A DNA stretch of 62,182 nucleotides, the filler included, from a bacterium (GTDB taxonomy: Bacteria; JBDRGX01), in assembly GCA_043817485.1 (NCBI GenBank). It is 8 parts of 8 records of this genome, joined end to end, with 100 filler letters (N's around TTAATTAATTAA, not from the genome) between each part and the next. Parts side by side here need not be neighbours in the genome. Positions count along the whole stretch, not along the records: positions 53,507 to 56,043 come from JBDRGX010000027.1; 7 more parts are not named here. One strand, written 5' to 3'. Position numbers and translations under genes: made by a program. The notes below the pieces were generated by a model. The model was not told the origin of the DNA. It made no database searches and saw only the letters and a list, made by a program, of their open reading frames with translations. Below, piece by piece: positions 5,177-57,470 of the stretch. Every line of letters starts with the position of its first letter. Positions within the stretch are counted from its first letter, which is position 1.

Positions 5177-6168
5177 ATGAATTTTATTCTACAAGAAAAA
5201 ATTTTTGAAAAAATGTCAGGGTTTATATTGACGATTATAATAGGGTTTATTGCTTTATGGATTGCCAAATTTCATAAAGCATTAGATCCTTTAGTGATAG
5301 GTATTGTATTAGGAATAGTAATAAGGACTTTCTTAGGAGAAAGGCATTACTTTTTATTAGGTTTTGATTTTGCTCCCAAATTCTTTATACCATTAGGCAT
5401 CATTTTTTATGGAATAAATTTGGAGTTTCATAAACTGGCTGCGATACCTGTTATTTTTTGGATTCAGTTAATAATAGGAATTATATTAATTTTTTTAATT
5501 GCTTTGTATTTAGGCAGAAGATTAGGTGCTGGAACCGCAATTCCTCTTTTAATAGCTACAGGAACTGCTATTTGCGGAGCTTCAGCTATTGCAATTGCTA
5601 CACCAATAGTAAAAGCAGATTCTGAAGATACCGGAGCAAGTTTGATAACTATTACCATCTTTGGACTGTTTGGTATGATGGTTTATCCCCTTGTTCTAAC
5701 CTGTTTTACACTTTCTAATACTGAATATGCATTTCTTTGCGGTACTACACTGCATCAGACCGGATTTGTGAAACTTGCTGCCAAAGCTTTGGGGGATGAT
5801 TGTTTGAAGATGGCCATGTCTTAAAAGTGGTAAGAACATTCTTGATAATACCTGTAATTGGATTTCTGTGCTGGTATATTGGAAAAAAAGAAGGGATAAA
5901 GAGAAAACCTATCTTGTATCAGATCCCCTGGTTTATGTGGGTTTTTGTTTTAGTAGGGCTTTTGGCTTCATTTGTTCCTACTTTTGGGCCATTGGCTAAA
6001 ACTTTAAAGCCATGGGCAGGCATATTTTTTACTATGGTTTTAACTAGCATTGGTCTAAAAGTTGACTTCAAGAGGATGCTCAATGTCGGCATATCACCAT
6101 TAATAATAGGTTTGGCTTGCTGGATTGCTGTAATTGGCGTATTTATTTTAGGAAAATTTATTTTTTAA
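5177..6168 (+). pseudogene. YeiH / putative sulfate exporter family membrane protein, frameshifted near 5820
   Basis: GTAICGASAI motif. ORFs 5177-5824 and 5800-6168 join as KMAMS-LKVVRTFL if one T is restored at GTC-TTA. Confidence 0.8.
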
Positions 6169-21892: not shown

Positions 21893-24800
21893 ATGTTGAA
21901 GAAAAAAAATCTTATTTTAAAAGTTTTTTTAATTATAATGATATTTTTAAATTCAATTTTTGCTAATCAAAAAAATGAATCTTTATTGCAAAAAGAAGAA
22001 CAATATTATGAAAAAGAAACTAAAGAAATAAAAGAACTTAAATCTACATTGATTAAAGAAAAATCTGATTTAGTAAATTTGCTTAATAAATTACTTATTT
22101 TAAAAACAGCTATTTCTTATACTAATGAAAATGAACAAATGATTGTAGAAATTGATAAAAAATGTGATGAAGTTAGAAAATTAATTCATAAAATTATTCC
22201 TGCAGAACCTTTAAAAGAACAAAATATTTCTGCAAGAATGGAATTTAGAAAAGCACTTAATTATTATAAAAAAGAAAACTATTTAATTTGTATTTCTTTG
22301 CTTTTACATATCTTGGAATCTTATCCTAAATTTCCAAATAAAGATGATTGTATTTTTTTATTAGGAGAATGCTTTTATGGATTAGATGATATGGCTAAAG
22401 CAGAAAATGAATATAAAAAAATTTTAGAACTATATCCAAATTCTAAATATCTTCCTCATAGTTTATTTGCTCTTCAAATGATTCAATATAAATCTGAAAA
22501 TTATGAAGAATCTTTATATTTTTATTCCTTGATACCTAAAAAATATTTTTCTTTATCTATTACAGAACCAAGTCATTATATTGCTGGATTAAGTTATTAT
22601 CATTTAGAAATGTTTGATGAAGCAATAGAAGTAATTAAAAATATTGATAAAAAAAGTAAATATTATGGAATTACTCAACAGTTAACAGGAATGCTTTATA
22701 TTAAAAAAGGAGATTTATATAAATCTATTAAATGTTTTGAAAAAATTATTGATAATTGTTCTCCAAGTAGAGCTGCAGAAAATGAACTTATAAAAATAGC
22801 ACATCTTAATTTAGGATATCTTTATTATGAAACAAATAATTTTTCGTATGCACTTAAAGAATTTAGTTTAATTGCTAAAAAAAATAATAAATATTATTAT
22901 GATGATGCTTTGTTTGGTTTGGCTTGGACATATATAAAATATAACAATTATTCTGTTGCTATAGATATTTTAAATAAGCTTATTAATGAAGTCCCTAATA
23001 GTGATTTAGTTTTGGATTCTCAAATTACTATTGGAGATTTGTATTTGAAAAAAAGGGATTATGATACGGCATATAAATTTTATCAAAATATAAAAGATAA
23101 TATTTTTTCTAAAATGTCTGTTGAAATAAAAAAAGGAAAAGATTTTATAAAAACATTGGAAGAAGAATGTAAAAATTTGAACGAAAATATAGAATCTTTA
23201 CAAAAATTAGCTGTTTCTATGCAAGGCCAAAAACAAGAATTAAATTATGAAAAAATTGTTATTAATATAAATAATTTTAAATTTCTTTATAAACAAATTC
23301 TTCGTTCTAAAAAATCTTTAGAAAACAAAGTAGCAAAACAATCAATTTTTTTACAAAATGGGATTGAAAAAGCAGAATATGGAATAAGTACATTATCTTT
23401 TATTAAGGCCGAAGAATTTGACAAAGAAATTCAAAAATTATCTAAAAAAATAAATGAAGAAAAAGAAAAACTTGAAAAACAAGGATTAGAAAAAAAAGTT
23501 TTTGAAGAAAAAATATCTTTTATAGAGAAAAATTTTGAGAAAGAAATTGATAAAATTGAAAATCAACAGCAAGAATGTAGAAAAAAAACACTTGTTTTAT
23601 ATCAACAATTTGAAAAAAAATTCCCAGATAGTAAATTAATGTCAGGAGTTCTGTATCATATTGCTCATTTATATTTAGAAGATGCAAATTTTAAATATAA
23701 AAAAGAAATGCAAAATTATGAAGCAGAATATGAAAAATATGAACAAAATTTAGTAAAAACTTTGCCATTAGAACCTTTACATGATTATAGAGAAACTATT
23801 AAAATATATGAAAATTTGATACAAAAATATCCCGATAATAAATTTACTAGTGCAAGTATGTATGAATTAGGTTATTGTTTAAATGAACAAGGAGAACGAT
23901 TAAAAGCAAAAAATATTTTTGAAAAATTTGTTGAAAAATTTTCAGATAGTTCATATGCAGCAGAAGTATGGCTTAGATTAGGAGAATATTATTTTGATGA
24001 AGGACCAATAGAAAAAGCTGTAAGTTGTTATGAAAAAGTACTTTCTTTTTGGGATAGTATATATTTTGATAAAGCTCTTTATAAATTAGGATGGACATAT
24101 TATCGTTTAAGTAATTATTCTGGAGCAATCAGTTCTTTTATTTTTTTACTTGAAGATGGTTATCTTTCTGAAAAATTTGGAAAAGATTCTTTGAAAACAA
24201 GTGTTGATTTAAAAGATGAAGCATTAGAATATATTGCTATAAGTTTTTGTGAATTTGTAGATGTTCATAAAGTAAAAGAATTTTTAACAGAATTAGGAGA
24301 AAGGCCTTATAATATAGAAATACTTTATAGAATGGCGAATATTTATGCAAAATTGAATAAAAATACTAAAGCCATTGATGTATGTAATTTATTATTACAA
24401 ACTTATCCTAATTCTTCTTTGTGTCCAGAAATTCAAAAAACAATTATTGAATGTTATGAAAAAGAAAAAGATTTTGTAAATGCTATTATTGCCAGAGAAA
24501 AAATTGTAGCAAATTATAGTAAAGATTCTGAATGGGTTAAAAAAAATCCTAATGCAAAAATAAATGAAATAAATCAATTAAGAGAAAAATCTGCATATAT
24601 TGTAAGTTCATATTATCATATGCAAGCAGAAAAAAATAAAAATAATGAAACATGCGAAATTGCTATTCAAAAATATAAAAATTATTTAACAGAATTTCCA
24701 TCTAATGAAAAATCTTATGAATTAAATTATAGATTAGCAGAATGTCTTTATTTTGTTGGAAAATATGATGAAGCATATAATGAATATCTAAAAATAAGTA

Positions 24801-27193
24801 ATTATGAAAAAACAGAATATAAAGAAATATCTTGTAATAATGCTATTGTTTGTGCCCAAAAAATATTAGGAGAAGACTTTTTTAAAGAAGAAATAAAAAA
24901 AATTGAAGAAAAATCATCAGAAGAAATTAAAAAAGAAGAAACCGCTCAAATTGTTCAAAAAGAATTAACAAAAGAAGCTTTAAATTTTATTATTGCTTGT
25001 GAAAATTATGTTAAAAAATTTCCAAATAAAGAAAATGTTCCAGAAATAATTTCAAAAATAGGTGCTTTATATTATAAATTTGGGTATTTAGAAAAATCGC
25101 GAATAGAATATTTGAAAATAATAGAAAATTATCCCGAAAGTAAAATTGCAACTTCTTCTAATAAATGGATTGCTCGAAGTTTTTATGAAGAAAAAAAATA
25201 TGAAGAAGCAGAAAAATGGTTTAAAGTATTATATCAAACATCTATTGAAACAAATCTTAAAACTGAAGGGTCTCTTGGAATGGCTCAATCAGCGTATTTA
25301 CAAGCAGATTCTTTAAAAGAAAAAGGAAATTTTGCTGAAGCAGCTTTGGCTTATGAAAAAGTAACAAAAAATTATCCCGAATATAAATTTAGCGATCAAG
25401 CATTATTTAATGCATCTTTAAATTATGAAAAAATAAATGATTTTGTTAAAGCAAATATTTGTTATGAAAATTTATTTAATGCTTATATTGCATCTAAATA
25501 TGCACCTTCTGCATTATTTAATGCTGCAACAAATTGTTTTGAAAAACTTTTAGATTATAAAAATGCTTCCAGATTATATAATTTATTAGCAGAAAAATTT
25601 CCAAATGATAAAAATGCTTCTTCTTCTTTATATAATGTAGCTTTATGTTATAATAAATTAGAAAATAAAGAAGAAAGTGCTTTTTATTTAGAAAAATTAG
25701 CAGATAAATATCCAAACAAAGAAGAGTCAAAAGAATCTTTATTTAATGCAGGTCGAATATATGAAGACAAAAAAGATTTGGAATCTACTATTCGAGTATT
25801 TTCAAAATTTAGTCAAAGATATTTTTCGGATATTCGAGTAATTCATTCTTTATGTGCTGTTGGATTTGCATATTATGAATTAAAAAATTATCAAGAAGCC
25901 AAATTATTTTTTGATAAATTAGAAGAAATTTATAAAAAATTACAAATAGAAGAAAAAGAAAAATATCTTTCTTATATAGCTAAAGCAAATTTTATGCGAG
26001 CAGAAATATCTTTAGCAAATTATTTGAATTACAACATAACCTTGCCTTTAATCAAATCTATAAAAACAAAAGTTGAATTAAGAGATAATGTTCTTAATTT
26101 TTATGAAAATACAGCTAAATTACAAATAGAAGAATGGACTATTCAATCTATTTATAAAATCGGCTTTATTTGGGAAAATTTTGCTAATGCAATTATTAAA
26201 TCTCCTATTCCAGAATTAGAAAAAGGAATAACTGTTGAAAATTATATGTTGGATTTAAAAAATCAAATGTTAATACATAAATATACTGCTATTAATACTT
26301 ATAAAAAAAACATAGAATTTAATGTGAATAATATTTGGATTGAAAAATCAAAAGAAGGAATAAAAAGAATTTGTGAAGAAATTTATACCATTTGTGAAGA
26401 TTATATTAAAACTGGAGAAAAAAAACAATATTCTGAATATTCTGGCTCTAAAAAATCTTTTTTGGAAATTTTTAAATATAAAGTTGGAAAAAAAGAAGAA
26501 GCAATAACATTTTTTGAAAATACTGTAAAAATAATAAATAATATCAAATTAAATCTTTCTAAATATAATCTTGAAAATGAAGAAACAAAAAAAATTAAAG
26601 AAATATTTTTTAAAGTACAAATAAAAACAGGAGAAATTTATGAAGAAATATCAGAACTTTATTTAAAATCTGAAATTCCTTCTAAACTTTCATCTGAAGA
26701 ACTTTTTTCTTATTTAACTCAAGTAAAACAAAAAGCAGTAGAATATATTCAAAAAGCTATTTCTGTTTATGAAAAAAATATAGAAAAAAAATCTGATAAA
26801 AATGAATGGAATTTAAAAAATACAGAATATTTAATGAGAGTATATTATAAATTAGGTACAATATATGAAGAAATAATTACTTTAATTGCTAATTATGAAA
26901 GACCAAAAGATTTATCTCCAGAACAGTTAGAAGAACTTAATTTTCAATTAGAAGAATTATCTATGAGTATAGAAGATAAAGTAATATCTTCATATAATAC
27001 AGCTTTAACAAAAGCAAAAAATGAATTTATTGAAAATGAATGGGTAGAAAAAATTAAACAAAAATTAACTCGATTAAATCCAGATAATCCTTTATTAAAA
27101 TCAAAAACAGAAAATCCAATTTCTTCTAATACATCTATTTCTAAAGAAAATATTCCTTTTTCAAAAATAGAAAAACCAGAAGAAAAAAAATAA
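21893..27193 (+). CDS. Giant secreted TPR protein, GltD/AgmU-like C-terminus
   Basis: Signal peptide; many YP.S...A-type TPRs; C-terminal RPKDLSPEQLEEL...IEDK...NEWVEK...LNP. Confidence 0.8.
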   Translation: MLKKKNLILKVFLIIMIFLNSIFANQKNESLLQKEEQYYEKETKEIKELKSTLIKEKSDLVNLLNKLLILKTAISYTNENEQMIVEIDKKCDEVRKLIHKIIPAEPLKEQNISARMEFRKALNYYKKENYLICISLLLHILESYPKFPNKDDCIFLLGECFYGLDDMAKAENEYKKILELYPNSKYLPHSLFALQMIQYKSENYEESLYFYSLIPKKYFSLSITEPSHYIAGLSYYHLEMFDEAIEVIKNIDKKSKYYGITQQLTGMLYIKKGDLYKSIKCFEKIIDNCSPSRAAENELIKIAHLNLGYLYYETNNFSYALKEFSLIAKKNNKYYYDDALFGLAWTYIKYNNYSVAIDILNKLINEVPNSDLVLDSQITIGDLYLKKRDYDTAYKFYQNIKDNIFSKMSVEIKKGKDFIKTLEEECKNLNENIESLQKLAVSMQGQKQELNYEKIVININNFKFLYKQILRSKKSLENKVAKQSIFLQNGIEKAEYGISTLSFIKAEEFDKEIQKLSKKINEEKEKLEKQGLEKKVFEEKISFIEKNFEKEIDKIENQQQECRKKTLVLYQQFEKKFPDSKLMSGVLYHIAHLYLEDANFKYKKEMQNYEAEYEKYEQNLVKTLPLEPLHDYRETIKIYENLIQKYPDNKFTSASMYELGYCLNEQGERLKAKNIFEKFVEKFSDSSYAAEVWLRLGEYYFDEGPIEKAVSCYEKVLSFWDSIYFDKALYKLGWTYYRLSNYSGAISSFIFLLEDGYLSEKFGKDSLKTSVDLKDEALEYIAISFCEFVDVHKVKEFLTELGERPYNIEILYRMANIYAKLNKNTKAIDVCNLLLQTYPNSSLCPEIQKTIIECYEKEKDFVNAIIAREKIVANYSKDSEWVKKNPNAKINEINQLREKSAYIVSSYYHMQAEKNKNNETCEIAIQKYKNYLTEFPSNEKSYELNYRLAECLYFVGKYDEAYNEYLKISNYEKTEYKEISCNNAIVCAQKILGEDFFKEEIKKIEEKSSEEIKKEETAQIVQKELTKEALNFIIACENYVKKFPNKENVPEIISKIGALYYKFGYLEKSRIEYLKIIENYPESKIATSSNKWIARSFYEEKKYEEAEKWFKVLYQTSIETNLKTEGSLGMAQSAYLQADSLKEKGNFAEAALAYEKVTKNYPEYKFSDQALFNASLNYEKINDFVKANICYENLFNAYIASKYAPSALFNAATNCFEKLLDYKNASRLYNLLAEKFPNDKNASSSLYNVALCYNKLENKEESAFYLEKLADKYPNKEESKESLFNAGRIYEDKKDLESTIRVFSKFSQRYFSDIRVIHSLCAVGFAYYELKNYQEAKLFFDKLEEIYKKLQIEEKEKYLSYIAKANFMRAEISLANYLNYNITLPLIKSIKTKVELRDNVLNFYENTAKLQIEEWTIQSIYKIGFIWENFANAIIKSPIPELEKGITVENYMLDLKNQMLIHKYTAINTYKKNIEFNVNNIWIEKSKEGIKRICEEIYTICEDYIKTGEKKQYSEYSGSKKSFLEIFKYKVGKKEEAITFFENTVKIINNIKLNLSKYNLENEETKKIKEIFFKVQIKTGEIYEEISELYLKSEIPSKLSSEELFSYLTQVKQKAVEYIQKAISVYEKNIEKKSDKNEWNLKNTEYLMRVYYKLGTIYEEIITLIANYERPKDLSPEQLEELNFQLEELSMSIEDKVISSYNTALTKAKNEFIENEWVEKIKQKLTRLNPDNPLLKSKTENPISSNTSISKENIPFSKIEKPEEKK

Positions 27194-53506: not shown

Positions 53507-53567
53507 AAAAAAAAAAAAAAAAAACCACAAAAAAAACCTAAAAGAAAATTTTTAAAAAATAAATATT

Positions 53568-54047
53568 ATGGAAGAAAAAAACCCAATAAAAATAAATCCC
53601 GATATAATAAAAAAGAAGTATGATAAAATAAAACCTTTTTTTGATAAAAATAATAAATTCAAAATAGCAATGCATTTAACTTATCATTATTATTCAGATA
53701 GTTATTGTTGTCATTGTAGAACCAAAAAGAAAAGTATATCCGAAGTAGTAATAGCATATCCTGTTCAAAAAAAGAGAAAATCATATAAAATATATAAGAA
53801 TTCCGAGTATTCAAAGAAAGATTTATCAATTTGGGAAAAACTTAATAATATTAATAATAATTTTGATACTACAAATAATATAAATTTAAAATCATTTAGG
53901 TTTTGTGTTTATGGAAAATGTTTAGAATGTGGAAAAAACATTTGTTGTATAATTCCAAAAGGAAGTTTTGAACAGCTGACAGGAGTCGAGATAGAACAAT
54001 TGAAAAACGCTTATGAAAGTTTCATGCTAGATAAGGGGAAGTATTAA
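53568..54047 (+). CDS. Cys-rich zinc-ribbon protein (DUF5679-like)
   Basis: YCCHCR...GKCLECGK, two CxxC knuckles. Confidence 0.55.
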   Translation: MEEKNPIKINPDIIKKKYDKIKPFFDKNNKFKIAMHLTYHYYSDSYCCHCRTKKKSISEVVIAYPVQKKRKSYKIYKNSEYSKKDLSIWEKLNNINNNFDTTNNINLKSFRFCVYGKCLECGKNICCIIPKGSFEQLTGVEIEQLKNAYESFMLDKGKY

Positions 54048-54123
54048 ATTGTTTTTTTTTTTTTTTTTTTTTTTTAATAAATTTTTTTTCTCATTCTAAA
54101 CATAAAAATATTAAAAAAATTCT

Positions 54124-55161
54124 ATGAAAACTTTAGAATGGCAAAATCCAAAATTTCAACAGGATATTTCACAAACACCAAGTCAAAATTTAAATAATGA
54201 GAATAATTATTTATATCTCAACAATCAAATTGCTTCAAATATATTTGGAATAAGAAATGAAGACAAATTTTTCAAATTCCCTAGAATATTGAATAAATGG
54301 GACCCTAGAAGAATTAACCCTAATTCTTTCATTTTAGTAATGGGAATGAGAGGTTCCGGTAAAACAGTTTTCGCAGATTGGATGATATTAAAAAATAGAG
54401 ATAAATGGCCCTTTGTGTATGTTTTTACTAAAACTGAATTTAATAAATTCTGGAAATCCAGAGTTCCTGAAAAATTTGTTTTCAAAGGTTTTCTTAGAGA
54501 TAAATTAGAAGAAATAATAAGTCACCAGAAAAAACTAATTGGAAATGATAATAAAATAGTTTTAGGAGGTCAATTATATGAAGTTAATCCTCATATATTA
54601 ATTATTTTAGATGATATTATAAGTGATGATATTTGGAATGATCCAATTTTAAAACAATTAGCAGTAGAAGGGAGACATATAAAAATATGTGTCGTTTTAA
54701 ATATACAATATATAGTAGCAGTTACAACTATGATAAGGGAAAACGCTGATTTTGTTATATCTTTTATCCAATTTTCTAAGAGAGCAATTGAATATTTAGC
54801 TAATGATTTCTTGGGACCAGTCAATTTTAATGAAGCTCAAAGAGGAATTATCGATAATTTACAAGATAATGTTAATAGAAAACATCAGGCTGTAATAATT
54901 GAAAGAAATATGAATACAGAAAGGAATTATGCAGAATTTATATATATATGTAAAGCTATAGATTTAACAAAAAATTTAGAAGGTGAGTTAATTCTTGGAA
55001 GTATTATTCAAGAAGAATTAAATAAAATTATGAAAGAAAAGGAACACATAGTTGGTGAAAACTATGCAGATGATAAGAAAATTTCCAAAGAAGATTTAGA
55101 AAAATCGTCTTTTAAATCTTTTACGGAGAAGTTAAAAAATCCGAAATTATTATTTTCTTAA
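54124..55161 (+). CDS. A32-like (FtsK/HerA superfamily) viral genome-packaging ATPase
   Basis: Walker A GMRGSGKT, Walker B LIILDD, A32-type GRHIKICVVLNIQY and IRENAD. Confidence 0.85.
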   Translation: MKTLEWQNPKFQQDISQTPSQNLNNENNYLYLNNQIASNIFGIRNEDKFFKFPRILNKWDPRRINPNSFILVMGMRGSGKTVFADWMILKNRDKWPFVYVFTKTEFNKFWKSRVPEKFVFKGFLRDKLEEIISHQKKLIGNDNKIVLGGQLYEVNPHILIILDDIISDDIWNDPILKQLAVEGRHIKICVVLNIQYIVAVTTMIRENADFVISFIQFSKRAIEYLANDFLGPVNFNEAQRGIIDNLQDNVNRKHQAVIIERNMNTERNYAEFIYICKAIDLTKNLEGELILGSIIQEELNKIMKEKEHIVGENYADDKKISKEDLEKSSFKSFTEKLKNPKLLFS

Positions 55162-55240
55162 ATAAAAAATTTAATAGGAAATACAAACCTAAATAAATTT
55201 TTGTTGTTTTTATTTTTTTTTTTTCTAAATATTTAAATTT

Positions 55241-55441
55241 ATGGGACTCGGAGGATCAAAAAATCCTATTTCAAGTATTTTAAGTTTACCAGGACAAATA
55301 GCGACAGATATTCAATATTTTATATATATTGGTTTTGCAGTAGTTATTTTAATAGCAGTTGGAATATTTATTTATTTAATAAAAGCTAAAGGAAGTTTAG
55401 TGAGTTTATCACCAGGCTCTCCATTACCTATATCACTTTAA
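55241..55441 (+). CDS. Small membrane protein with N-myristoylation consensus
   Basis: MGLGGSK fits G2/S6/K7; single TM YFIYIGFAVVILIAVGIFIYLI. Confidence 0.6.
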   Translation: MGLGGSKNPISSILSLPGQIATDIQYFIYIGFAVVILIAVGIFIYLIKAKGSLVSLSPGSPLPISL

Positions 55442-55444
55442 AAT

Positions 55445-56035
55445 ATGAATACATTTTGTTTATCAATAGATCCAGGATTAATAAATTTTGGAATTGGAAT
55501 ATTTGCTGTTTTAGACGGAGAGCAGCAAATATCAATAATAAAGAAAGGAAATTATAATTTGTATTATATTCATAAAAGAAAATTAGATGTACATAAATTA
55601 AATCAAATATTAAAAAAATATGTAACTCGTCTTAATGATGAATTGGAATTATCTATTTCTTTAGGGAAAAATTGTTTAGTTTATATAATTATAGAGAATC
55701 AAATGGCTAATAATTTTAAAGTAAAGAGTGTTTTTGATATTTGTCTTGGATATTTATTTCATTATAAATTAATTACTGAAAAAAATAATCTAAATAATGA
55801 TAAATTTATAATATTATTTGAAGATATAAAAGATTGGATTTTTAATCCTAAATTATTTAAAACGTTAATAGAAATTAATCAAAAAAAAAATAGGACTGCA
55901 AGAATTAATTTTGTAAATAGAATTTTTAATAATAGACAAATATTTACTGATGATCATACAGCTGACTGTTTAATAATGTTTTTAGTTAAAATTGGATATT
56001 TCGAAGATTTTGTAAATAATTTTTATCATTTATAA
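55445..56035 (+). CDS. RuvC-like Holliday junction resolvase (poxvirus A22-like)
   Basis: LSIDPGLINFG, IIIENQ, DDHTAD acidic catalytic set. Confidence 0.75.
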   Translation: MNTFCLSIDPGLINFGIGIFAVLDGEQQISIIKKGNYNLYYIHKRKLDVHKLNQILKKYVTRLNDELELSISLGKNCLVYIIIENQMANNFKVKSVFDICLGYLFHYKLITEKNNLNNDKFIILFEDIKDWIFNPKLFKTLIEINQKKNRTARINFVNRIFNNRQIFTDDHTADCLIMFLVKIGYFEDFVNNFYHL

Positions 56036-56043
56036 ATAAAGAT

Positions 56044-56143
56044 NNNNNNNNNNNNNNNNNNNNNNNNNNNNNNNNNNNNNNNNNNNNTTAATTAATTAAN
56101 NNNNNNNNNNNNNNNNNNNNNNNNNNNNNNNNNNNNNNNNNNN
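56044..56143. other. Artificial contig spacer
   Basis: N44-TTAATTAATTAA-N44. Confidence 0.98.
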
Positions 56144-56224
56144 TGGCAAAACTATCCCATATATAGTATTTATTGCTAATATTGGCACAACATGTTGTAT
56201 ACTTCTCATGCCAAATTTCTATTG

Positions 56225-56425
56225 CGACACAGTCTCATGAATTGCCCTTACAAACAGGCGAATGGCGTTCGCCTTTACCAAAAAAGAATATTGAAATTTT
56301 GGATTTTAGTTTGGGGATTGTGGAATATTGTATTTTTAATTTAAAATCATAAACATTTCAATTCGTTCCATAGGAACGAAATATTGGTAAAAACGAAACA
56401 AATTCGAATGACCAAAATTCAAAAC
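56225..56425. repeat. REP-like hairpins and heptamer tracts
   Basis: GGCGAATGGCGTTCGCC; TTCGTTCCATAGGAACGAA; inverted copy of 21819-21841. Confidence 0.55.
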
Positions 56426-56486
56426 ATTGTTAAATAAAAATATTTTACTATAAATTAAAGTAATTTTTAAATCTTAATTACTAAAT

Positions 56487-57470
56487 ATGTTAAATCACAA
56501 TTATTTTATAAATTTAAGTTCAGGTTATCAAATTTCATCTGTAATTTTTACAGCTATTCAATTAGATATTTTTACTTTTCTTGAAAAAAAGTCCATTTCT
56601 GCAAAAACAATATCTTGTCATTTAAAAATACCAAATTCATCTTTAAAAAGATTTTTGGATGTTTTAATTTTTTTAAATTTACTTTTATTCAAAAATGGAA
56701 AATATTCTTTAACTTCTATTTCTTCAAAGTATTTGGTAAAAAATAGTCCATTTTATATGGGTAATTTTATTCATCATCGTTTTAATCTTATTTCTGATTG
56801 GCAAAATTTGTTAGTAAGTTTAAATACAAATAAACCAATAACTTTTACTTCAAAACATCAAAAACAATTTTCTCATAGACTTAATGATTATCTTTTAGCA
56901 ATGAAAGATATTGCTAAAATAAAAAGTAATTTTATTCTAAAAAAAATTGATTTGAGTAAATATAATTCTTTACTTGAATTAGGAAGTGGGTTAGGAGAAT
57001 ATAGTATTGCTTTTAATGAAAAATATCCTCATCTTAAAATAACTCTTTTTGATTTGCCAAAAGTAATAAAAAAAGCAAAGAAATATATTTCAAAAAAATA
57101 TATTTCTTTATCATCAATAAATTTTCAATCTGGAAATTGTTTAATTGATTTTTTAGGAAAAGAAAAATATGATGTAATTTTTGTTTCTAATCTTATTCAT
57201 ATTTATTCTGAAAAAGAAAATCAAAAAATTATTAAAAAATGTTTTACAGCATTAAAAAAACATGGCATTATTATCATTCATGATTTTATTAAAGAAATTA
57301 ATATTTATTCTTTTCTTTTTGATTTAAATATGCTTTTAGGAACTGTAAATGGAAAAGTTTATACTAAAGAAGAAATTAAAAATCTTTTAAAAAAATCTAA
57401 TTTTAAAAAAATTAAAATTGATTTTATAGATAAAAAAAGTTCTGCTATATTTGTAGGAGTAAAAGAATGA
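56487..57470 (+). CDS. SAM-dependent O-methyltransferase with dimerisation domain (candidate BzaC-like)
   Basis: SSVIFTAIQLDIF, LLELGSGLG, LFDLP, SNLIHIY, IIHDF; overlaps cobT start. Confidence 0.85.
   Translation: MLNHNYFINLSSGYQISSVIFTAIQLDIFTFLEKKSISAKTISCHLKIPNSSLKRFLDVLIFLNLLLFKNGKYSLTSISSKYLVKNSPFYMGNFIHHRFNLISDWQNLLVSLNTNKPITFTSKHQKQFSHRLNDYLLAMKDIAKIKSNFILKKIDLSKYNSLLELGSGLGEYSIAFNEKYPHLKITLFDLPKVIKKAKKYISKKYISLSSINFQSGNCLIDFLGKEKYDVIFVSNLIHIYSEKENQKIIKKCFTALKKHGIIIIHDFIKEINIYSFLFDLNMLLGTVNGKVYTKEEIKNLLKKSNFKKIKIDFIDKKSSAIFVGVKE

Follow-up and report, generated by a model that had tools for sequence, protein, structure and literature searches.

Here, we examine a 2537-bp contig (JBDRGX010000027.1; 22.5% GC) that was deposited in a bacterial genome assembly (GCA_043817485.1) and that the original prediction took for a hidden fragment of a eukaryotic virus. 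It occupies positions 53507-56043 of a 62-kb window, by which we mean the whole stretch of DNA that was analysed (62,182 nucleotides (nt)), and all positions given below count along that window. The window is not a single molecule: it consists of eight contigs joined by seven spacers, each of the form N44-TTAATTAATTAA-N44. Since such artificial, strandless spacers lie on both sides of the region in question, one between it and the preceding bacterial contig (53407-53506) and one 3' of it (56044-56143), positions 53507-56043 represent a complete, separate contig, which ends 8 nt past the stop codon of its last gene.

Four open reading frames (ORFs), all intact and all on the plus strand, give the contig a coding density of ~91%. 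ORF1 (53568-54047) encodes a cysteine-rich orphan protein of 159 amino acids (aa), ORF2 (54124-55161) a 345-aa predicted packaging ATPase of the A32 type, ORF3 (55241-55441) a 66-aa protein with one predicted transmembrane segment, and ORF4 (55445-56035) a 196-aa protein that is probably a RuvC-fold Holliday-junction resolvase of the poxvirus A22/Ydc2 type. The spacers between these genes measure 76, 79 and 3 nt, and the tight, co-oriented packing first described for them is borne out. The same is true of the long homopolymers between them. The ORF1-ORF2 spacer holds a run of exactly 24 T (54052-54075, plus strand) followed by AATAAA, and the contig itself opens with a run of 18 A and an AT-rich leader up to ORF1 (53507-53567, plus strand); it was probably at this A18 run that the assembly broke. 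This contig has four A or T runs of 10 nt or more (1.58 per kb), compared with 0-0.37 per kb on the seven other contigs, and the only runs of at least 13 nt in the whole window are the A18 and T24 just described.

The packaging ATPase and its relatives

On its sequence and its modelled fold, ORF2 is an A32-type genome-packaging ATPase of the FtsK-HerA superfamily, and by analogy with that family it would pump DNA. It matches the Pfam family PF04665 (Pox_A32) at 47.7 bits (E 1.8e-12; curated gathering cut-off 22.8), with residues 68-268 aligned to profile positions 13-207 of 242. The GRH...Q and RxN motifs from which the original prediction had recognised the protein prove to be conserved columns: in addition to a Walker A motif (GMRGSGKT, 74-81) and a Walker B motif (ILDD, 160-164), ORF2 carries GRH (183-185), Q195 and R205-x-N207-x-D209, and in a 36-sequence alignment of its family G74, R76, G79, K80, D164, G183, H185, R205 and D209 are invariant, with D163, R184, Q195 and N207 at least 90% conserved.

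An AlphaFold2 model of ORF2, built from an alignment with 35 relatives, has a predicted local distance difference test score (pLDDT) of 83.6 and a predicted template modelling score (pTM) of 0.79; its N-terminal ~55 residues are of low confidence and its C-terminal tail is helical. A Foldseek search of BFVD with this model placed named A32-type ATPases of Nucleocytoviricota, the phylum to which their source viruses belong, in 37 of the top 50 rows. The best of these is from Medusavirus (9.6e-19), and the named matches also include those of Pandoravirus, Tupanvirus, African swine fever virus (ASFV; B354L) and an entomopoxvirus (OPG160). The other rows comprise 11 unnamed proteins, one from an uncultured virus and, at rank 48, one phage FtsK. 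Among solved structures in the PDB, the best match is B204, the packaging NTPase of Sulfolobus turreted icosahedral virus 2 (STIV2; 5.7e-9), followed by HerA, TcpA and FtsK.

An exhaustive HMMER search of 1.84 billion representative sequences returned 2098 relatives of ORF2 at E<=1e-3, including 454 at <=1e-10; the best, besides ORF2 itself, stands at 1.9e-29 and 30% identity, and none other reaches 1e-30. Word-indexed homologue searches recovered the query alone, both for ORF2 (one of 1515 candidates) and for ORF4 (one of 69), and none of the single-protein scans of IMG/VR (P0001, P0003, P0154, P0002 and P0059) turned up a relative. When 13 relatives were used for a pattern scan of IMG/VR, 236 stretches matched the pattern and 150 of them were confirmed; we retained 80 loci, on contigs of 4-44 kb. 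We clustered the 1271 ORFs of these loci and applied Pfam to 69 cluster representatives and to three whole loci. The resulting gene counts refer to genes no more than 10 kb from the ATPase, with absences owing in part to contig ends.

The company that the ATPase keeps in these loci (80 of 80) is that of the nucleocytoplasmic large DNA viruses (NCLDV): VLTF3 (PF04947) was found in 76, a YqaJ/PDDEXK nuclease in 62, an NCLDV-type major capsid protein (MCP; PF16903/PF04451) in 35, DUF5767 in 32 and Pox_A22 (PF04848) in 24. A metagenome scan added at least 71 loci, with ATPase (70), VLTF3 (37), PDDEXK (26), MCP (22) and A22 (12) among the matches listed; the 41-kb contigs on which the P0048 cluster is known are not among them. 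Related contigs whose context was fetched measure 4-48 kb. As set out in the accessible part of Yutin et al. (2024; PMC11253617), the mriyavirus core comprises MCP, ATPase, VLTF2, VLTF3, RuvC, PDDEXK, an HUH endonuclease, SF3 helicases, Mriya_48 and others, mriyavirus genomes measure 35-45 kb, and A32 and A22 are core genes across the whole phylum Nucleocytoviricota. The gene set around the ORF2 relatives is the mriyavirus core set given there. The relationship to small viruses of the Yaravirus and mriyavirus type that had been suggested for the contig is thereby upheld, the relatives of ORF2 lying beside VLTF3, NCLDV-type MCP, A22 and, once, a histone. This last case is a 38-kb metagenome contig (L123), a small virus with a histone gene, in which a distant ATPase relative is found together with a histone H2A-like protein, an archaeo-eukaryotic primase (AEP) with DUF5906 and a GRF zinc-finger protein, and in which the MCP and A22 matches are weak.

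Outside these virus-like contigs, EukProt contains, among the gene models of the anaerobic amoeba Mastigamoeba balamuthi, a 459-aa member of the ATPase family (P0087). It groups with ATPases of the type of L073, the best IMG/VR match of ORF2 (1.9e-29), and may represent an endogenous viral element and point to the host range. Among 185,579 prokaryote species genomes, a pattern scan (one peptide pattern) found only two relatives, on contigs of 1.6 and 4.4 kb. L152 and L153 are relatives in metagenome-assembled genomes (MAGs) labelled Omnitrophota or 'uncultured bacterium', L153 being a 4.4-kb contig that has a PDDEXK gene too, and P0003 (NCBI MBU0706671.1) comes from a 35-kb contig deposited as 'Patescibacteria group bacterium'; all three are probably further misbinned eukaryotic-virus contigs. 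Taken together, the VLTF3, MCP and A22 contexts, the amoeba gene model and the scarcity of prokaryote matches indicate that the ATPase family belongs to viruses of eukaryotes.

We propose, at a probability of about 80%, that the contig is a fragment of a double-stranded DNA (dsDNA) virus of a microbial eukaryote, in or beside Nucleocytoviricota, and that it was misbinned because of its composition. Its source most likely lies in the small-genome, mriyavirus-like continuum, where a genome of ~20-45 kb would be expected. ORF2 has no match in the phage collection described below. The original prediction of a hidden eukaryotic-virus contig was essentially right.

A FastTree phylogeny of the ATPase family (226 sequences) joins ORF2, with support 0.85, to another orphan, P0002, whose contig measures 2.7 kb; each of the two has a long branch. 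The nearest contig obtained, L154 (25.6 kb), carries GIY-YIG, HNH-AP2 and methylase genes and no detected VLTF3, and looks like a Polinton-like virus (PLV). This raises the question of whether our contig derives from a PLV, a virophage or a Polinton (Preplasmiviricota) with an A32-like ATPase. Such ATPases do occur in all three groups, and a 2026 preprint proposes, in its accessible part, that 15-kb PLVs, mriyaviruses and giant viruses form one continuum (bioRxiv 10.64898/2026.06.19.733378). L154 is, however, a distant relative that matches ORF2 only at 1.1e-9, compared with ~1e-29 for VLTF3-bearing loci, and the top 50 fold matches, of which 11 are unnamed, include neither a named virophage nor a named PLV. 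The A22-type resolvase, moreover, is a core gene of Nucleocytoviricota and mriyaviruses (PMC11253617, accessible part), and the words RuvC, resolvase and Holliday have no occurrence in the available text of the PLV framework preprint (bioRxiv 10.64898/2026.06.19.733378). We regard a preplasmiviricot origin as quite improbable.

The candidate resolvase, the small membrane protein and ORF1

ORF4 is probably an A22/RuvC-type resolvase, as had been suggested. In a protein atlas its features score 0.94 against Pox_A22/Ydc2 clusters of Nucleocytoviricota (198 shared features), and the atlas model of ORF4 (pTM 0.80) aligns to RuvC and Pox_A22 clusters with template modelling (TM) scores of 0.60-0.69. 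When aligned with 21 proteins of an A22 cluster from the related loci (c13, two members of which pass PF04848), D9, E84, D170 and D174 fall in invariant columns, a placement that MAFFT could favour; the acidic residues follow the order D...E...D..D, in an N-terminal IDPG strand, an ENQ and a DDxxAD helix. Profile scores are marginal: the hidden Markov model (HMM) of the A22 cluster, the best of 57 cluster HMMs, reaches ORF4 at E 7.7e-4 (7.4 bits) by hmmsearch, hhalign gives 46.5% probability (E 2e-4) over residues 3-184, and BLASTP aligns ORF4 with two A22 family members collinearly over its full length (E 0.002 and 0.005). A profile of ORF4 together with the 21 A22 proteins, which dominate it, finds in the PDB the canarypox resolvase 5e6f (5.7e-4), Ydc2 (1kcf), the fowlpox resolvase (6p7a/6p7b) and RuvC (7w8d), and retrieves 826 proteins, with PF04848 in all of the 120 matches listed. 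Tetratricopeptide repeat (TPR) proteins that topped the PDB profile search were set aside as low-complexity artefacts of the A22 cluster's C-terminal motif. The resolvase assignment thus stands on the motif alignment, the atlas and these marginal scores, and not on a Pfam hit.

ORF3, whose predicted transmembrane segment spans ~residues 27-49 (Kyte-Doolittle mean over 19 residues, 2.79), begins with MGLGGSK. This fits the N-myristoylation pattern, a fit seen in one of the four ORFs of the contig and in none of 43 bacterial genes, and the protein is possibly N-myristoylated on the strength of this motif. The motif and the single membrane segment are what survives of the proposal that ORF3 is a myristoylated membrane protein of the NCLDV kind. 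No relative was found by phmmer, with 57 cluster HMMs or by hhalign among the related loci, Pfam and PHROG gave no match of note, and homology to the large myristoylated proteins of NCLDV (poxvirus L1-type) was rejected, ORF3 being far shorter at 66 aa and having no sequence homology to them.

In 21 of the 24 IMG/VR loci with A22, a hydrophobic protein of 65-121 aa lies directly upstream of it on the same strand, at a gap of -3 to 34 nt; of the other three loci, one is truncated where its contig ends, and for the other two an opposite-strand ORF had been picked. In mriyavirus-like contigs the small membrane protein often overlaps A22 by 4 nt, and ORF3 stands 3 nt upstream of ORF4. ORF3 therefore corresponds in position to the small membrane protein encoded ahead of A22 in related viruses, and this shared layout lends independent support to ORF3-ORF4 being a mriyavirus-like two-gene unit. 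None of the related small membrane proteins examined starts with MG. The accessible parts of PMC11253617 and of bioRxiv 10.64898/2026.06.19.733378 do not mention the pairing, and its tightness across many genomes suggests a joint function.

The same pair bears on the size of the source virus. Instead of a small mriyavirus-like genome, the contig might come from an NCLDV of large or giant size, such as an AT-rich, Imitervirales-like one, an origin that we think unlikely. In favour of it, A32 and A22 are core genes throughout the phylum (PMC11253617, accessible part). Giant-virus ATPases top the structural matches of ORF2, and its Pox_A32 score of 47.7 bits exceeds the 20.2-36.5 bits of seven of the ten mriyavirus-like ATPases tested (the remaining three being L082 at 59.7, L154 at 50.8 and L083 at 27.3 bits). 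A GC content of 22.5% and long homopolymers in the spacers also resemble mimivirus-like genomes. Against this, the nearest sequence relatives with known context (30-36% identity) sit on contigs of 4-48 kb with a compact mriyavirus-like gene set, the longest contigs with ATPase-family members are of 35-45 kb, ORF2 is only 11-25% identical to named giant-virus ATPases in fold alignments, and the pairing of a small membrane protein with A22 is that of small mriyavirus-like genomes.

ORF1 has cysteines at positions 47, 48 and 50 and at 113, 118, 121, 126 and 127. A Pfam search with it gave nothing below E 0.23 and a PHROG search nothing at E up to 1, and no relative was found among the ORFs of 154 related loci by phmmer, or with the 57 cluster HMMs or hhalign. 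Zinc-ribbon leads in the atlas score 0.84-0.86, below the lead threshold, with structure rows at TM 0.23-0.34 by query, and a zinc-ribbon protein is possible as a lead only.

Composition, signals and the bacterial contigs

The seven remaining contigs of the window (22.9-27.1% GC) are those of a very AT-rich diderm bacterium. They encode bacterial ValS, a DnaB-type helicase, PurL, Tol-Pal/YbgF and BamD-type TPR proteins, as well as TolQ, a GltG-like protein, MqnC of the futalosine pathway, CbiB and CobT. The tetranucleotide profile of the virus-like contig correlates with that of the pooled bacterial contigs at r 0.982, within the range of 0.956-0.992 spanned by 21 bacterial chunks of 2.5 kb, and its dinucleotide distance to them is ordinary. 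A composition-based binner would hence accept the contig, which fits the binning error originally supposed; by the same token, composition is no proof of foreign origin. Eukaryotic-virus fragments can contaminate bacterial MAGs in this way whenever their composition matches, and they may then pass for bacterial genes or prophages.

A composition indistinguishable from that of the bin would also be expected for a virus of the bacterium itself, and the contig might accordingly belong to a double-jelly-roll virus or prophage of this AT-rich bacterium or of another prokaryote. ORF2 has a match of 3.4e-8 to PHROG 2666 ('terminase large subunit'), weaker than that to Pox_A32, the best solved structure is B204 of the archaeal virus STIV2 (5.7e-9), and P0003 was deposited under a patescibacterial name. 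We nevertheless consider a prokaryotic virus highly improbable. A tblastn search with ORF2 of 50,697 phage records gave no match at E<=0.01; NCLDV ATPases, at 1e-19 to 1e-10, outrank both B204 and the one phage protein among the rows; and the relatives of ORF2 co-occur with VLTF3, NCLDV MCP and a histone. The two relatives that the scan with one peptide pattern found among prokaryote species genomes lie on tiny MAG contigs, and the 35-kb contig of P0003, probably misbinned as well, has the size of a mriyavirus genome.

The signals around the genes add little to the proposal of a eukaryotic virus. Shine-Dalgarno-like 4-mers are present upstream of none of the four ORFs and of 19 of the 43 bacterial genes (P ~0.10), so that the reported absence of such sites is correct as a count but alone not significant. 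The stop codons of the ATPase and the resolvase both read TAAATAAA and so create AATAAA, as had been noted, and stops of this kind occur in two of the four ORFs compared with two of the 43 bacterial genes (P ~0.03, hypergeometric). The signal is weak because AATAAA is frequent throughout the AT-rich DNA of the window (17 on the plus strand of this contig, and 2.8-5.1 per kb elsewhere). Even taken together, absent Shine-Dalgarno sites and AATAAA motifs are not statistically persuasive in DNA of 22% GC. As for promoters, AAATATT stands upstream of ORF1, ORF2 and ORF3; the window has 209 copies of it (137 expected), and the plus strand of the contig five, and it was dropped as evidence since it had been chosen post hoc.

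AATAAA abutting two of the four stops would also suit an endogenous viral element in the nuclear genome of a protist, rather than DNA from free virions, an origin that is compatible with our proposal of a eukaryotic virus. The Mastigamoeba balamuthi gene model in the ATPase family favours it, as do the endogenous mriyavirus-like and PLV elements of algae described in the accessible part of bioRxiv 10.64898/2026.06.19.733378. The contig, however, has no flanking eukaryotic sequence, intron or integrase, and its ORFs are all intact at a coding density of ~91%, and we judge an endogenous origin rather unlikely.

Three features of the bacterial contigs are recorded here in their own right. On the first contig, two overlapping ORFs (5177-5821 and 5800-6165, plus strand) match positions 9-211 and 215-327, respectively, of the YeiH-family transporter model TIGR00698, and the pair (5177-6165) is one gene that is frameshifted or mis-assembled. 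Positions 21893-27190 (plus strand) encode an unusually large, envelope-associated protein of 1766 aa with many TPR units and repeated YbgF/CpoB and BamD model matches, on the same contig as TolQ and the GltG-like protein. Lastly, a non-coding leader of ~340 nt (56144-56486) lies 5' of a methyltransferase gene and CobT and has local inverted repeats as judged by eye; an Rfam scan of 56144-56520 gave no match at E<=1, and hence detected no known cobalamin riboswitch.

Proposed source, function and comparison with known systems

In weighing whether the contig is a fragment of a eukaryotic dsDNA virus, several findings count against it in addition to the terminase match and the bin-like composition discussed above. 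The contig itself carries no capsid, VLTF3 or polymerase gene, so the assignment depends on two genes, one solid and one probable, and ORF1 and ORF3 have no detectable relatives. The identity of ORF2 to any relative is only ~30-36%. In the phylogeny, it sits on a long branch of 1.1 substitutions per site, and its pair with P0002 falls inside an 18-member clade (support 0.83) made up of short metagenomic contigs only, with no locus of known context; the tree itself is unlabelled, holding no NCLDV, mriyavirus, PLV, virophage, Polinton or tectivirus references. ORF4 by itself gives no match to PF04848, PF09159 or PF02075 at E<=1 in Pfam and none in a PDB sequence search, and a separate hhalign run of our own returned a probability of 2.2%. 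Its AlphaFold2 model, from 22 sequences, is poor (pLDDT 50.6), and Foldseek found nothing for this model at E<=1e-3, with RuvC and the fowlpox resolvase among the weak rows.

If the contig is viral in the sense proposed, what might its genes do? They would form a genome-processing and packaging module acting at the end of the replication cycle. Judging from its family, the ORF4 resolvase would cut branched or concatemeric replication intermediates to unit genomes, before or during packaging, and the ORF2 ATPase would drive the replicated genome into a preformed, membrane-lined icosahedral capsid. From the conserved gene order, ORF3 is most likely part of the inner virion membrane, with its gene and that of the resolvase forming a fixed pair. 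For ORF1 our guess, a speculative one, is a zinc-binding protein that binds nucleic acid or has a regulatory role.

As to the lineage, we tentatively entertain, as a possibility with odds clearly below even, a deep and uncharacterised group of viruses of 22% GC within the continuum of PLVs, mriyaviruses and giant viruses, of family rank or above, whose ATPase shares at most ~36% identity with any of the 1.84 billion representative proteins, in which the small-membrane-protein/A22 pair has moved beside the ATPase to make up a compact genome-processing module, and whose host may be an anaerobic protist cohabiting with, or harbouring, the bacterium of the bin.

Of the systems with which the contig can be compared, the poxvirus A32 protein (OPG160) and the other NCLDV packaging ATPases share with ORF2 the Walker A and B motifs, the GRH...Q...RxNxD series and a fold match of E 1e-19 to 1e-8, whereas identity in the fold alignments is 11-25%. 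The B204 proteins of the archaeal turriviruses STIV and STIV2 provide the best solved match (chain 4kfu_D, TM 0.70 normalised by target); this match is weaker than those of the NCLDV ATPases, at 12-15% identity, and is to a virus of archaea. B204 belongs to the same FtsK-HerA branch that membrane-containing double-jelly-roll viruses use. With poxvirus A22, the fowlpox and canarypox resolvases and Ydc2/Cce1 (PF04848, PF09159), ORF4 shares a length of ~150-200 aa and the aligned D-E-D-D residues, and it differs from the A22 cluster by insertions around residues 40-50, 65-76 and 120-160. ORF3 has in common with the myristoylated membrane proteins of Nucleocytoviricota only the MGxxxS motif and one transmembrane segment.

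The closest comparison is with the Mriyaviricetes and their small relatives (Yaravirus, Pleurochrysis endemic viruses, gamadviruses and Zoravirus-type clusters), which share the A32-type ATPase and the RuvC/A22-type resolvase, both belonging to the mriyavirus core in the accessible part of PMC11253617. The 2537-bp fragment holds only the ATPase and the probable RuvC of that core set, and ORF1 and ORF3 are without sequence counterparts in mriyavirus-like loci. ORF2 is at most ~36% identical to the ATPases of these loci and its long branch lies outside all the loci that were fetched, and the GC content of the contig (22.5%) differs from the 36-63% of the related loci whose GC was read. Gene order differs as well: ATPase, small membrane protein and A22 follow one another on our contig, whereas the five fully read loci (L014, L064, L102, L121 and L122) have MCP first, then the small membrane protein and then A22, and in them VLTF3, on the opposite strand, comes next after the ATPase. 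Small relatives of the giant viruses bear on the question of how giant viruses originated, and with ORF2 an outlier among them, a full genome of this virus would add a deep branch to the group.

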